Of a stretch of 62,735 nt of DNA, positions 24,678-39,853 are shown piece after piece. Position 1 is the first letter of the stretch, and every line of letters starts with the position of its first letter. The translations under genes were made by a program, and so were the position numbers. The stretch lies in IMG/VR virus record IMGVR_UViG_3300042448_001551, positions 1 to 62,735 of that record; one strand, 5' to 3'. The notes below the pieces were generated by a model. That model saw nothing but the letters and a program-made list of their open reading frames with translations. It was not told the origin of the DNA and did not search any database. Source of the stretch: a virus. Taxonomy: Duplodnaviria; Caudoviricetes.

Positions 24678-24707
24678 ATTATAAGATTTTAATGTTTAAA
24701 AAATAGC

Positions 24708-24779
24708 GGTGTATGTTGGGACTCGAACCCAAATTTCATCCTCCCGTAGATGCGTACTAGCCTTTATACTACAAACACC
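24708..24779 (-). tRNA. Degenerate tRNA (His-like G-1:C73 acceptor, 6-nt anticodon loop)
   Basis: G-GTGTTTG-TA-GTAT AAAGGCTA GTAC-G-CATCT ACGGGA GGATG-AAAT-TTGGG TTCGAGT CCCAA-CATACAC-C. The cloverleaf is intact, but the anticodon loop is 6 nt and no CCA is encoded. Confidence 0.7.
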
Positions 24780-32759: not shown

Positions 32760-33700
32760 TTTCTCAATCTTTGATTAATAGAATAAGTAATCAAGGATGA
32801 CCTTATTTCTAAAATGTCCCCTAAACAACAACATAGCTTGATTTAATGTTGTATAGGAAAATAATACAATATGTATTATTCCTTTATCAAAGATTGGGGT
32901 GTGTTCCTCATGCACTCAGTTGTAATATTACTACCGTGGAGATCAACCCACCCAACTCTATAGTTATATCATATTAATATAACTCCTATCCTCGTATTAT
33001 TACAAACTGTCTCATTCTTAGATTGATTAACTTTAATTACAGGCAATATTACCTTCCCCTACATAGCACCCACTCTATTGTGAGATTTATATGCAGATTC
33101 GTTTGTTAATCAGATCTTTTTACATCTTGGGAGCTGATTAAAACCTTACTACATCTAACTATATAGCAAGTTTATACATTCTTTACAGCTGGCATTTAAG
33201 GAGAATAGTTAGTTCTTAGCCAATACTGTGGTGTTGTATTATTAATCAGATGTCCCAAGAAAGAATGAATAGTGCATAAAGGAATAAGTTTTGTTTTAAG
33301 GACTCAAGGGTCGGTCAACCCTTGATTTATATTTTATAAAAATCTCATTGGAACTACACACGACCTGAATGTATAGCTAATGTCTCCACATCACCCCAAT
33401 AAGATCGACTCTATACTAACTTTTAGTATATCATCTGTTATCTGGTCCACCACAAACCAGGGAGAGAAATAGACGTGTGGTTTTTACGTCTACGAAACGG
33501 TTGTACCATTACTGGTCGTTTAACTGTTACCTCTAAGCTTAACCGTAAATTTAGAGATTCAGTGCTTGATTTTATAGTCTGCACTAACTTAGCATTACAT
33601 AGAAAGGAATGTTTATCTATGTTTAATACTCTCACCCTTATATGAGAGAACACTATAGTAGCCCCACAAGCTTGTCACAGTTTATTAATCCGTAAAGAAG
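32760..33700 (-). ncRNA. Candidate large structured non-coding RNA (about 950 nt)
   Basis: No credible ORF in an otherwise gene-dense genome, many local hairpins and several long-range helices (see findings). The strand is inferred from the flanking genes and the terminator. Confidence 0.55.
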
Positions 33701-36682: not shown

Positions 36683-37114
36683 ATGAACACTCTTTATAAA
36701 CTAAAAGATTATAGGGAAACATTTAAGTTTGAGAAAGAACATCCTAAACCTCTCCGCTGGGATGACCAGTATAAATTATACATGTTGTCACAAGCGGAGA
36801 AGTTTCAGGGTATTTGGTTCAAAGATAAAGGAGAGTTAATAGGAGAAATTTTGTTTAGCTGGCAAAGTGATAATGTAGTGCATATAGATTCTTTCACTAT
36901 AATAGAAGCTTACAGAGGAAAAGGATTGGGGTATGAAATAGTTAATGAAGGAATAAAATGGGCTGAAAGTTTTAATTTCTCTTACATCACTGGAGAAGCT
37001 AGACAAGGAGCCAGTTGGAAAATATTTGAAAATATAGGAGCATTCCCTATTTTGTTACATGAAAACTGGAATGACACAAAAGAAAATTACATGAGTTTTA
37101 AATTAGATATATAA
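36683..37114 (+). CDS. GNAT-family acetyltransferase
   Basis: HIDSFTIIEAYRGKGLG acetyl-CoA-binding motif A. Confidence 0.85.
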   Translation: MNTLYKLKDYRETFKFEKEHPKPLRWDDQYKLYMLSQAEKFQGIWFKDKGELIGEILFSWQSDNVVHIDSFTIIEAYRGKGLGYEIVNEGIKWAESFNFSYITGEARQGASWKIFENIGAFPILLHENWNDTKENYMSFKLDI

Positions 37115-37476
37115 TGGCATTAGTAAACCAAGTTGATAAGAGAGTAAAAATGGACCTTTGGCAGATAGTAAAATATCAGATTTTAACCCATTGTTACATT
37201 AATAAAATACAGATAAGTGATTCTGACTTAGACTGTTTAACATATTTAGCTTTAGAAGGAGACCAAGAATTAACTAGCTTTTGTAATAAAGCTAATGAAA
37301 AAAGATTGTTTTCCTCAGCCCAGTCTGTGAGAAACTGTCTCACTAAATCAGAAAAGAAAGGTCTTATAAAGAAAGAAGGAAAGAATAAGAAAAAAATATT
37401 TTTACACCCAGATCTTAAAGTGCATAGTAAAGGAAACATATTATTAGACTTTAAATTCTTGTGCGTTGCATCCTAA
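37114..37476 (+). CDS. Conserved wHTH-like hypothetical protein
   Basis: SAQSVRNCLTKSEKKGLI; lies upstream of the HU/IHF-like gene. Confidence 0.6.
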   Translation: MALVNQVDKRVKMDLWQIVKYQILTHCYINKIQISDSDLDCLTYLALEGDQELTSFCNKANEKRLFSSAQSVRNCLTKSEKKGLIKKEGKNKKKIFLHPDLKVHSKGNILLDFKFLCVAS

Positions 37477-37897
37477 AAAAGCTAAAGAGTTAATACCAGA
37501 AGTAGCTGAAAAAACCAATCTACCAGAAGAAATTGTGAAACAAATAGTTTCTTATTACTGGCAGGAGGTGAGACAAGCTCTTTCTAGTCTTCAACATTCT
37601 AGGGTGCATGTAACAAATCTTGGAGATTTTGTAATTAAACATTGGAAATTAGAAGAAAAGGTTAAAGTGTTTGAACAGTTTGAGGAAAAAAACAAACAGA
37701 AAGGTTTACAACAAATCACTGCTAGATTTAGAACAGCTGAAAAACTTTTTGATCTTAAAAATTTACAAAGTATAATAGATACTGAGAAGCAAAGGGCAGA
37801 TTTTGTTAAAATTTATAAAACTACTAGAGATGAGTCTAAAACAAAATATAATAAGGGTTTGGAAAAACAAAAACCAAATAGTGGAGGGGGTGACTAA
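37466..37897 (+). CDS. HU/IHF-like DNA-binding protein
   Basis: KELIPEVAEKTNL....VKQIVS....V...L.....VHVTNLGDF is the HU N-terminal pattern. Confidence 0.7.
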   Translation: MHPKKAKELIPEVAEKTNLPEEIVKQIVSYYWQEVRQALSSLQHSRVHVTNLGDFVIKHWKLEEKVKVFEQFEEKNKQKGLQQITARFRTAEKLFDLKNLQSIIDTEKQRADFVKIYKTTRDESKTKYNKGLEKQKPNSGGGD

Positions 37898-38165: not shown

Positions 38166-38998
38166 GTATATTAAGATTCACTGCTCATGATCATAAATAC
38201 ACAAGTATTGATGAACATGAAAAAGAGTGGTTATCTGTAACATCTTTTATTGGACAGTTTAAACAACCGTTTGATGCTGATAAGATTGCAGAGAAATCTT
38301 CTAAAAAAAGAAACTCGAAATGGTATGGAATGACTCCAGAGGATATAAAAACTGCCTGGAAAAATGAAGCACTAAGAGCTACAACACTTGGAACATGGTA
38401 TCACAATTGTCGTGAAAAAGATATTTGTGATTTTCAAGATATGGAAAGACATGGAAAGACAGTACCCGTTTTTACACCAATAGAAGTGGAAGGAATCAAG
38501 TATTCTCCTAATCAAAAGCTTACGGACGGTGTCTACCCAGAACATATGGTTTATTTAAAATCAGCAGGACTTTGTGGGCAATCAGATCTTGTAGAAGTGA
38601 TAGATGGGTTTGTACATATAACAGATTATAAGACAAACAAAGAGATTAAGTTGGAAGGATTTACCAGCTGGGATGGAATAACACAAAAAATGTTACCACC
38701 AGTGTCTCATTTAGACGATTGTAATTTAAACCACTATGCATTACAGTTGAGTCTTTATATGTATATTATATTAAAGCACAATCCTAAATTAAAACCAGGA
38801 GTGCTAACTATTCATCATATAATGTTTGAGGAAGTGGGTAGGGATAAGTTTGACAACCCTATAACAGAGCTTGATAGTAATGGAGATCCTGTAGTTAAAG
38901 ATATTGTACAATATGATCTTCCATATTTAAAATCAGAGATTATTAATCTTTTACATTGGCTAGAGGATAATCGCCACAAAATAAAAGTAAAGCACTAA
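38162..38998 (+). CDS. PD-(D/E)XK nuclease (Cas4/RecB-like)
   Basis: SVTSFI, GT..H, E...., GQSDLV, ITDYKTNK and HYALQLSLY motifs. Confidence 0.85.
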   Translation: MSILRFTAHDHKYTSIDEHEKEWLSVTSFIGQFKQPFDADKIAEKSSKKRNSKWYGMTPEDIKTAWKNEALRATTLGTWYHNCREKDICDFQDMERHGKTVPVFTPIEVEGIKYSPNQKLTDGVYPEHMVYLKSAGLCGQSDLVEVIDGFVHITDYKTNKEIKLEGFTSWDGITQKMLPPVSHLDDCNLNHYALQLSLYMYIILKHNPKLKPGVLTIHHIMFEEVGRDKFDNPITELDSNGDPVVKDIVQYDLPYLKSEIINLLHWLEDNRHKIKVKH

Positions 38999-39672
38999 TG
39001 AAAGTAGTATTTGATCACATTAATGGTTTTGGTAAAGTGAGTGATCAAGATTTTATTTATTCACAACCTTATGGTATTCTTGAAAATGGAGAAAATCCTT
39101 CAGATGCTTTAGATAAAGGATGGATACCGTGGGAAGACTTATGGTATAATATTAGATCTGTAAGAATAAAGTTAAGTGATTATAAACCACATGAAACTAC
39201 AAGAAAAAAAGCTAGACTTATTAATTTTTTGTATAAAGAGTTTGATGATAAACTTATCTATCGTGAACTATATGAGAAGTATTTAAGTCACCGTGGGTTT
39301 TTAAGAACAATTACATGGGAACAACTCTTTACTGGTCATATTGTTGAGTATAGTTACATGGGGAATGTTATTGGGTTTTCATGTGTAGAAAAATATAATG
39401 ATGCTTTAGTAGCAACACAGTTTGTCTGGGATTATGAAGAACCTAGTCTTTCTTTAGGCAAGGTGGCTCAGATGTATGAGTGTGAAATAGCAAAGATTTT
39501 AGAATGTAAATATGTATATATTTTAGGAGGTTATGAACAATGTTGTTTGTATAAGTCAGACTTTTATGGTTTTGAATGGTGGACAGGTTCAGAATGGAGT
39601 AGAGATAAACAATTATATAAAACTCTTTGTGAAAGAGATGATAAAACTACTGTAACATATGATGATATATGA
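38998..39672 (+). CDS. ATE1/Bpt-like aminoacyl-tRNA-protein transferase
   Basis: LDKGW, RSVRI and WDYEEPSLSLGK...E..IAK..ECKYVYILG.Y..CCLYKSDF resemble the ATE C-terminal D....SLG...Y.YLGY..C..M.YK..F pattern. Confidence 0.7.
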   Translation: MKVVFDHINGFGKVSDQDFIYSQPYGILENGENPSDALDKGWIPWEDLWYNIRSVRIKLSDYKPHETTRKKARLINFLYKEFDDKLIYRELYEKYLSHRGFLRTITWEQLFTGHIVEYSYMGNVIGFSCVEKYNDALVATQFVWDYEEPSLSLGKVAQMYECEIAKILECKYVYILGGYEQCCLYKSDFYGFEWWTGSEWSRDKQLYKTLCERDDKTTVTYDDI

Positions 39673-39853
39673 ACCAATTAATAGAGTGGAAGTGACCACT
39701 CCTAAAGGTGATGGTGTTATTTGGATTATTACAGACTATGGTCATGAAACAGATACCGTGTATACTATTATAATAGATAAAACATGTGAACTTTGGCAGT
39801 TTACACATAAAGACATAAAGATTAGAAAAAACGTAACATTTAGAAGAACATGA
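39659..39853 (+). CDS. Small hypothetical protein
   Basis: VTTPKGDG...ITDYG.E motif; overlaps both neighbours in a coupled manner. Confidence 0.6.
   Translation: MMIYEPINRVEVTTPKGDGVIWIITDYGHETDTVYTIIIDKTCELWQFTHKDIKIRKNVTFRRT

Follow-up and report, generated by a model that had tools for sequence, protein, structure and literature searches.

The stretch of DNA considered here, which will be called the window, takes in a virus record of 62,735 bases (IMGVR_UViG_3300042448_001551) from end to end. On its plus strand lies a gene for a protein of 224 amino acids (aa), P0001, that is a true homologue of the ATE1/Bpt aminoacyl-tRNA-protein transferases, enzymes that take the amino acid off a charged tRNA and attach it to the end of a protein. 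The protein is not to be counted as an orthologue of either Bpt or ATE1; it is a conserved, phage-borne member of their superfamily. The window has a G+C content of about 30%, and CheckV estimates its completeness at 48%, so it represents roughly one half of the genome of a crAss-like phage. It was found in 20 sequencing runs from lake and freshwater metagenomes (17 studies), three of which may be its source and none of which is listed as an RNA dataset.

The initial annotation of the window, made from the sequence alone, had called a 224-aa open reading frame (ORF) for the transferase, and the frame is indeed present, with the quoted strings in its translation. It had also described the gene as coupled, lying between a PD-(D/E)XK nuclease and genes that run towards the terminase, and the junctions bear this out: the stop codon of the upstream gene and the start codon of the transferase gene have one base in common within TAATG, the end of the transferase gene runs into that of a small ORF downstream, and all are on the same strand (Table 1). 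The upstream gene is of the PD-(D/E)XK type (PDDEXK_1 at 22.3 bits, the cut-off being 22; phrog_298, an exonuclease, at E 1.7e-23). On the 3' side of the small ORF, the same strand carries genes for an uncharacterized 170-aa protein, PhoH, DUF5522, the large terminase, the portal, and a capsid protein matching Crass_capsid. The packaging-operon setting that had been described, with its terminase-portal-capsid strand, is not conserved; it is common to the window's own subclade only.

Table 1. Positions of the features discussed, numbered within the window unless another record is named
Feature	Position	Strand	Basis
Transferase gene (P0001, 224 aa, ATG start)	38998..39672	+	ORF and translation
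TAATG junction, stop of upstream nuclease gene and start of transferase gene	38996..39000	+	sequence read, ORF ends
Small ORF (64 aa), 14-base overlap with end of transferase gene	39659..39853	+	ORF and sequence
tRNA-like element	24706..24779	-	Rfam tRNA, 42 bits
Hatchet ribozyme, full-length match	33564-33699	-	RF02678, 74.1 bits (gathering threshold 51), E 2.2e-13
GNAT of the ordinary acetyl-CoA type	36683-37114	+	Acetyltransf_1, 43.1 bits
HU/IHF-like DNA-binding protein	37466-37897	+	Bac_DNA_binding, 25.9 bits
Phage ClpS homologue (84 aa)	L215:1489-1743; also G204, G205, G208, G516, G520	+ (L215)	48.6-58.6 bits, cut-off 23
Clp/Hsp100-type double-AAA+ ATPase (684 aa), 187-kb phage record	L061:1554-3608	+	AAA, AAA_lid_9, AAA_2 (232 bits), ClpB_D2-small

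Relationship to ATE1 and Bpt

The Pfam family ATE_C (PF04377) matches residues 99-179 of P0001 at 33.2 bits (curated cut-off 25; E 8.9e-8), and the ATE/Bpt-like C-terminal pattern that had been noticed by eye thus stands above the curated cut-off and beyond chance expectation. Searched singly against the PDB, the protein finds ATE1 weakly (E 0.11). When an alignment of 62 family sequences (A1) served as the profile, Ate1 of K. lactis and ATE1 of yeast were found among the solved chains at E 2e-8 and 5.7e-8, respectively. ATE_C was recognized in 44 of the 62 sequences at E <=0.01, Acetyltransf_6 in three, and Acetyltransf_1 in none.

A model made by AlphaFold2 with A1 has a predicted local distance difference test (pLDDT) score of 95.2 and a predicted template modelling (pTM) score of 0.90. 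Given this model, Foldseek returned ATE1 structures at ranks 1-10 (E 6.6e-8 to 1e-6), followed by MprF, aminoacyl-phosphatidylglycerol synthases, and FemX. The top match in VIA was human ATE1 (8tzv_A; Z 15.7, root-mean-square deviation 4.2), with 210 of the 224 residues aligned and residues 1..216 of the model spanned; Ate1 of K. lactis (7wfx_A) gave Z 14.6 over 212 residues. FemX, MprF, and L-PGS had scores of Z 14.6-15.0, yet with 143-174 residues aligned. Acyl-CoA GNATs (Z <=12.6) ranked under ATE1, FemX, and MprF, and Aat (2dps) came at rank 41 (Z 9.9). In VIA the likeness to ATE1 is one of the whole protein, N-terminal lobe included, and neither search pointed to a plain acetyl-CoA GNAT.

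It is probable that P0001 is an aminoacyl-tRNA-dependent transferase of the ATE1/Bpt superfamily. The initial annotation, which had called it an ATE1/Bpt-like transferase, was right insofar as homology is meant (ATE_C, fold), but the protein is hardly a standard Asp/Glu transferase, the acid-recognizing Arg and the zinc cysteines being gone (see below). The Aat family, Leu_Phe_trans, gave no Pfam match to P0001; PHROGs offered nothing for it (best E 0.13); and tblastn found no match in 50,697 GenBank phage records, a set that possibly lacks the window's own or near records.

Active site and donor pocket

Residues of P0001 were mapped, by HMMER and hhalign alignments, onto the mutagenesis reported by Kim et al. 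2022 (PMC9351520). By this account, Lys304 of Ate1 is catalytic and is the equivalent of Lys305 of FemX, the hydroxyl of Tyr303 is essential, and the charge of Arg80 is essential for Asp/Glu substrates (R80E is dead and R80K is weak). The donor pocket consists of Ser255/Ser273/Glu277/Tyr289 in Ate1 and of Ala168/Ala185/Gln189/Leu201 in Bpt, and ATE1 needs the acidic pocket residue for arginine (PMC9351520).

Conservation was read in the 62 sequences of the family at large and in a closer set of 81 relatives from viral loci (48-82% identity), in which 51 of the 224 columns are invariant. The catalytic Lys304 corresponds to Lys186, which is kept in 61/62 of the family and 81/81 of the closer relatives. 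The equivalent of Tyr303 is Tyr185, with Tyr in 52 and Trp in nine of the 62 and with Tyr in all of the 81; that of Trp260 is Trp144 (46/62 and 79/81); and that of Glu277, from the arginine pocket, is Glu161 (57/62 and 81/81). The closer relatives also keep His7, Arg53, Arg56, and Ala157 in 81/81 cases and Ile43, Ala139, and Val173 in 80/81. All 81 have three to five Lys/Arg in the segment 64-75, the equivalent of the tRNA-binding helix of ATE1. So far as alignments can tell, the conservation among the 81 is such as one expects of a functional enzyme.

In the window's clade the donor pocket reads Ala139/Ala157/Glu161/Val173, and the wide family has mostly Ser/Ser/Leu at the three positions other than Glu. 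From a pocket Bpt-like in shape that keeps the acidic residue of Ate1, we infer that a basic donor (Arg or Lys) is likeliest. On the other side of the active site, the parts of the acceptor pocket that serve acidic protein ends have been lost, and the target is probably a different one.

The phage-borne family and its cellular relatives

Among 90% clusters, 183 relatives were found at E <=0.001; the 120 listed are 221-248 aa in length, and 117 of them carry PF04377. Matching clusters at 50% identity number 175, out of 1.84 billion representatives. IMG/VR holds at least 551 confirmed viral stretches with a gene of the family, and the genomes of prokaryotes (one for each of 185,579 species) gave nine matches, all on contigs of metagenome-assembled genomes (MAGs). 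Two of these nine contigs are 118-132 kb in length and come from bins titled Chitinophagaceae and Bacteroidetes. The family is almost wholly viral and forms a separate phage-borne branch. Five viral records have a differing gene neighbourhood around the transferase; three are crAss-like by capsid, unlike the other two (one of 187 kb; one of 124 kb, bounded by terminal repeats). The automatic pipeline of the Joint Genome Institute (JGI) already names relatives arginyl-tRNA--protein-N-Asp/Glu arginylyltransferase. A distant ATE-like gene (30% identity) was seen amid nine tRNA genes on the 132-kb contig of the Bacteroidetes-titled MAG (L084), a genome that also has a Crass-type capsid gene.

Few genomes of the phylum to which the Chitinophagaceae-titled MAG belongs have proteins of the ATE_N type (7 of 201, with 2 above the cut-off). 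These proteins fall within a Cys-less, Bpt-like family of about 220 aa, here called A2, from bins of Bacteroidota, Acidobacteriota, and Ignavibacteria (L091-L097, P0271-P0390). A2 proteins match ATE_C at 60-72 bits, give a weak ATE_N signal, and have no zinc cysteines. They keep Arg at the equivalent of Arg80 in 35/36 cases and have Val at the position of the phage Arg53. At the position matching Glu277 they are divided between Ala (21/36) and Glu (11/36), a split hinting at two donor specificities.

The other cellular group, A4, comes from candidate-phyla bacteria and was found by way of a Magasanikiibacteriota-titled MAG (L089:4881-5540; L198-L213), and a homologue is present in 15 of 301 genomes of that phylum. 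By profile comparison, A4 is the nearest cellular relative found of the phage family. The two have in common the N-terminal start, a G[WF]-hydrophobic motif, an RSxR motif, the C-terminal extension, a hydrophobic residue in the Arg80 column, and Arg53; they are unlike in that A4 has Ala at the position of Glu161 and a strongly conserved SSENRR helix. In an unrooted tree (a quick run of IQ-TREE on alternate rows of A1 and A2, with one long A2 row dropped), the phage, A4, and A2 groups make three clean clades; the tree is uninformative on origin. No literature joining ATE_C with candidate phyla was among the matches listed.

The small downstream gene and other features of the window

In 79 of 89 loci, the gene next after that for the transferase is a homologue of the 64-aa gene (58-83% identity); about 50 of these loci share no other gene with the window. 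The small protein has 22 invariant columns in 37 sequences, a conservation above that of the enzyme, and AlphaFold2 predicts it to be a six-stranded SH3/Tudor-like beta-barrel (pLDDT 84). Foldseek found no match to the model at E <=0.001, and VIA gave Z 6.9 at most, to generic SH3/Tudor/KOW barrels. No Pfam family matches the protein, PHROGs has nothing for it, and Atlas gave only viral hypothetical clusters. When the search was made from the small gene, 80 loci were obtained, of which 36 have the transferase gene directly upstream, about 39 lack it despite enough upstream sequence, and five are too short. Nor was a transferase gene found anywhere in 12 larger records with a lone small gene (0/12; positive control 5/5). 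Two transferase loci (L060 and L061) are without the small gene, and no fusion of the two proteins occurs among 390 proteins. The transferase gene is thus nearly always ahead of the small gene, and the small gene is not dependent on the transferase.

Three other features of the window may be recorded here. The strand block that holds the transferase gene also carries, a few genes before it, a gene for an ordinary GNAT and another for an HU/IHF-like protein, both conserved in the window's subclade. A full-length Hatchet ribozyme lies in the gene-poor stretch that separates the two divergent gene blocks of the window.

tRNAs and the source of the amino acid

According to the initial annotation, the genome held several anticodon-defective tRNA-like RNAs, and these might be the donors to the enzyme. 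There is a single tRNA-like element in the window. Its acceptor, D, and T arms are normal; as for the anticodon, ARAGORN reports it as undetermined, with two bases, and RNAfold gives a 5-bp stem closing a 6-base loop. The element is 14 kb from the transferase gene, on the opposite strand, and no fetched related locus has a similar sequence. Of the complete or near-complete genomes that bear the transferase, G205 and G208 have no tRNA genes at all, and G207 has one, an ordinary tRNA-Arg(TCT) 1.5 kb upstream of the gene. By hand count of the 89 loci, tRNAs are present in 21 (nine identities, none defective) and absent from 68. Since there are genomes free of tRNA genes, since the nearby tRNAs are ordinary and varied, and since the element stands isolated, the idea of tRNA-like donors finds no support, and the enzyme must use tRNAs charged by the host.

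A slot for a single tRNA was seen 0.7-1.7 kb downstream of the transferase gene, between the genes for the 170-aa protein and DUF5522/terminase, in the close relatives L001-L003, L009-L014, and L019-L020. The identity of the tRNA varies (Cys, Met, Leu-CAG, Asp), and in the window the slot holds PhoH.

ClpS and the N-degron pathway

A phage ClpS gene is carried by 6 of 16 transferase-bearing virus records and by 0 of 12 transferase-free relatives (positive control 5/5), for which a hand-calculated hypergeometric chance is about 0.02; among transferase-bearing records at least 90% complete, the fraction is 3/8. The phage protein keeps the NDD and VH..GK motifs, aligned to a solved ClpS core, and starts only a few residues ahead of that core. 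In E. coli, the N-terminal extension of ClpS is needed for delivery to ClpA. The phage ClpS has almost no such extension and therefore might act as a block and not as a delivery factor. In L061, the 187-kb record, the transferase gene is preceded at 2.4 kb, on its own strand, by the gene for a Clp/Hsp100-type ATPase, and that for an M23 peptidase is 1.2 kb downstream, on the other strand.

The likely host phylum is that of the Chitinophagaceae-titled MAG with a related phage contig, and of its genomes 98/101 have ClpS and 95/101 have Aat. One might reason that, where ClpS and Aat are near-universal and the Bpt step is mostly missing, a basic residue added by the phage would thus feed an existing host pathway. 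The N-degron role that had been suggested for the enzyme is plausible and gains some indirect support from the ClpS in 6/16 records, the ATPase of L061, and the ClpS and Aat of the host, but it would hardly be the role of a standard Asp/Glu transferase.

What the enzyme might do

We propose that the enzyme would transfer an amino acid to an amino group, the donor being a tRNA charged by the host. The acceptor arm of the tRNA would be bound by the basic helix, with Lys186, Tyr185, and Trp144 put to use. The amino acid would most likely be basic, Arg or Lys. The acceptor would not be the acidic N-terminus that is the substrate of ATE1 and Bpt, because the equivalent of Arg80 is non-basic in 62/62 sequences and a short turn with the invariant Arg53 stands where the zinc loop would be; most likely it would still be the N-terminus of proteins. 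Recognition of the added residue might then fall to the host's own N-degron pathway of Aat and ClpS/ClpAP or, in one subclade, to the phage ClpS. The full chain, from a basic donor by way of non-acidic protein N-termini to ClpS-type proteolysis, is offered tentatively, as something a little short of probable. A broader version would be speculative and rather unlikely as a whole: a phage-run branch of the N-degron pathway, in which a basic residue is put on non-acidic N-termini (possibly those of host proteins starting with Met or a hydrophobic residue), destruction is left to host Aat and ClpS/ClpAP, and the outcome is a proteome-wide shut-off of the host. In one subclade the ClpS core would redirect or block the process, and the enzyme branch would have been adopted separately by candidate-phyla bacteria for the cell wall.

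A good many observations weigh against this proposal. Column 43, the equivalent of Arg80 (by sequence alignment and not by coordinates), is Leu in 35 sequences, Ile in 10, Ala in seven, Cys in three, Met and Thr in two each, and Gln, Ser, and Tyr in one each; it is basic in 0/62. The zinc cysteines CX2C...CC are absent. P0001 has no Cys ahead of residue 129, there is no conserved N-terminal Cys column, and the loop with Cys95/96 of K. lactis Ate1 has been swapped for a short turn (judging from the AlphaFold2 secondary structure and the alignment), with Arg53 inside it and Arg56 just after, both in 62/62. With the acid-recognizing Arg never basic and the zinc cysteines absent, it is therefore an assumption that the acceptors are protein N-termini. 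ATE_N (PF04376) does not match P0001 at E up to 10, nor any of 62 and 32 members at E <=0.01, and the best score against the NCBIfam equivalog models for arginyltransferase/Bpt (PRK01305) is 28.2 bits, where the cut-offs are 170 to 358. Because ATE_N, the zinc site, the acid-recognizing Arg, and the equivalog models all fail, the protein should not be classed with the orthologues of Bpt or ATE1. In the wide family the basic helix is partly deleted (gaps at positions 69-73 in 9 to 30 of the 62), and three of the four donor-pocket residues in the window's clade are Bpt-like, so that the donor may be hydrophobic. As for proteolysis, all six ClpS-bearing records come from one related subclade, and the contrast with transferase-free records may reflect a single evolutionary event. 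The phage ClpS gene is 10-12 kb from the transferase gene, there is no ClpS in the complete genomes of the window's own subclade (G513, G514, G517), and no ClpP was found in the five transferase-bearing records searched. Lastly, there is the company kept by A4, whose profile aligns with that of the phage family over 219 columns (hhalign Prob 99.8, E 8.5e-30; the E-value for A2 is 7.6e-18). In 15/15 genomes its gene is directly beside one for a MurC/Mpl-like Mur ligase, and in 7/15 it is preceded by a MraY-like gene. This synteny suggests that A4 is an ATE-fold enzyme of peptidoglycan precursor synthesis and that the acceptor there is a precursor of the cell wall.

Might the phage enzyme, too, act on a non-protein amine? 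The most plausible would be a peptidoglycan precursor, as with FemX; late in infection, for example, the enzyme could cap that amino group of the host's stem peptide through which cross-links are made. We consider this unlikely, though not to be neglected, given the full-length architecture and the motifs shared with the Mur-linked clade, the loss of the acid-recognizing Arg, the VIA scores of FemX, MprF, and L-PGS, and the M23 peptidase gene near the transferase gene in L061. However, the alignment over the whole protein is with ATE1 only, the family has Tyr at the Tyr303 position and not the Phe of FemABX (PMC9351520), and Ala in A4 where the phage proteins have Glu161 argues for different donors. 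Moreover, the link to Mur is one of synteny, and the conserved neighbours of the phage gene include no mur, lysis, or cell-wall gene. Conversely, the enzyme might be a standard Bpt or ATE1 after all, adding Leu or Arg to N-terminal Asp/Glu, with Arg53 standing in for Arg80. The full-length fold, the JGI name of the relatives, and the invariance of Arg53 and Arg56, the former in a turn next to the active-site cleft, would all fit, but A2, with its Arg at the Arg80 column, shows what retention looks like, and in the phage family Tyr25 and the CX2C loop are missing as well. Arg53 is common also to the Mur-linked clade and so is not specific to acidic protein ends. On balance, a standard enzyme is improbable.

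The target might instead be a protein of the phage, either the small SH3-like protein encoded next to it or one of the virion or cargo proteins made from the same late-strand block. The small gene follows the transferase even where all other neighbours differ, overlaps its stop, and is the better conserved of the two, and in the window the pair stands at the head of the terminase-portal-capsid strand. Nevertheless, we doubt this strongly, in view of the small genes without a transferase (about 39/80 loci, and all 12 of the larger records), the two transferase loci without a small gene, and the want of any fusion. That the protein is merely an acyl-CoA GNAT of the plain kind, or a remnant that has lost its catalytic activity, would accord with its GNAT-fold core, which many acetyltransferases resemble at Z 10-12.6, and with the few matches to Acetyltransf_6. 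Against this, Acetyltransf_1 matches no member, aminoacyl-tRNA transferases rank above acetyltransferases in both fold searches, and catalytic and pocket residues are invariant over 81 proteins about 50% identical; this alternative we regard as very improbable. Scarcely credible is a two-part system with an anticodon-defective tRNA-like RNA as dedicated donor. The window does have one such element with an abnormal anticodon loop, and ATE1 requires the acceptor arm only (PMC10115844), but the distance, strand, and isolation of the element, the genomes G205 and G208 without tRNA genes, the ordinary tRNA-Arg of G207, and the loci with no tRNA or ordinary ones all tell against it.

Significance and comparison with known systems

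The branch is large, conserved, and recurrent in lake metagenomes, and it combines kept catalytic residues with a rebuilt acceptor pocket and a partial co-occurrence with phage ClpS. Should the enzyme mark proteins for proteolysis, it would give phages a new route to the remodelling of the host proteome, and protein engineers would gain a small transferase, free of zinc, for work on N-termini. If cell-wall precursors are the acceptors, then the ATE fold would be in use for FemX-like chemistry. Either way, the acceptor specificity of the superfamily becomes directly testable with a protein of 224 aa. No paper on a phage-encoded aminoacyl-tRNA-protein transferase was among the literature matches listed, where such enzymes are known from cells only.

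Eukaryotic ATE1 (K. lactis 7wfx, yeast 8e3s, human 8tzv) is like the phage protein in its GNAT-type ATE_C core and its full-length fold, N-terminal lobe included, and the phage protein keeps the catalytic Lys, the Tyr of the essential hydroxyl, the Trp, the basic tRNA-binding helix, and the pocket Glu. ATE1 is, however, about 500 aa in length, and the phage protein is without the variable C-terminal domain, without the CX2C...CC zinc site, and without the Arg80 and Tyr25 of the acidic-substrate pocket; three donor-pocket residues are Ala, Ala, and Val in place of Ser, Ser, and Tyr (here and for Bpt, residues are those given in PMC9351520). The Bpt leucyltransferase of the Vibrio vulnificus type, compared through that residue list and through A2, resembles the phage protein in size, two-lobe layout, and Ala/Ala/x/aliphatic pocket, and differs from it in having Gln where the pocket of the phage protein has Glu and in possessing the ATE_N match and the acid-recognizing Arg. 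The Cys-less proteins of A2 are similarly small, lack the zinc cysteines, and are related at the profile level, but unlike the phage family they have the equivalent of Arg80, the weak ATE_N signal, and Val for Arg53.

FemX/FemABX and MprF/aminoacyl-phosphatidylglycerol synthases are likewise aminoacyl-tRNA-dependent GNAT transferases with the catalytic Lys in the same place. Their N-terminal lobe differs, however, the alignment is confined to 143-174 residues, and they have Phe before the catalytic Lys (PMC9351520). Closest among the cellular relatives found are the Mur-linked proteins of A4, which share the N-terminal start, both motifs, and the C-terminal extension with the phage family, and which differ from it in being cellular, in their fixed synteny with a Mur ligase, in the Ala at the position of Glu161, and in the SSENRR helix.

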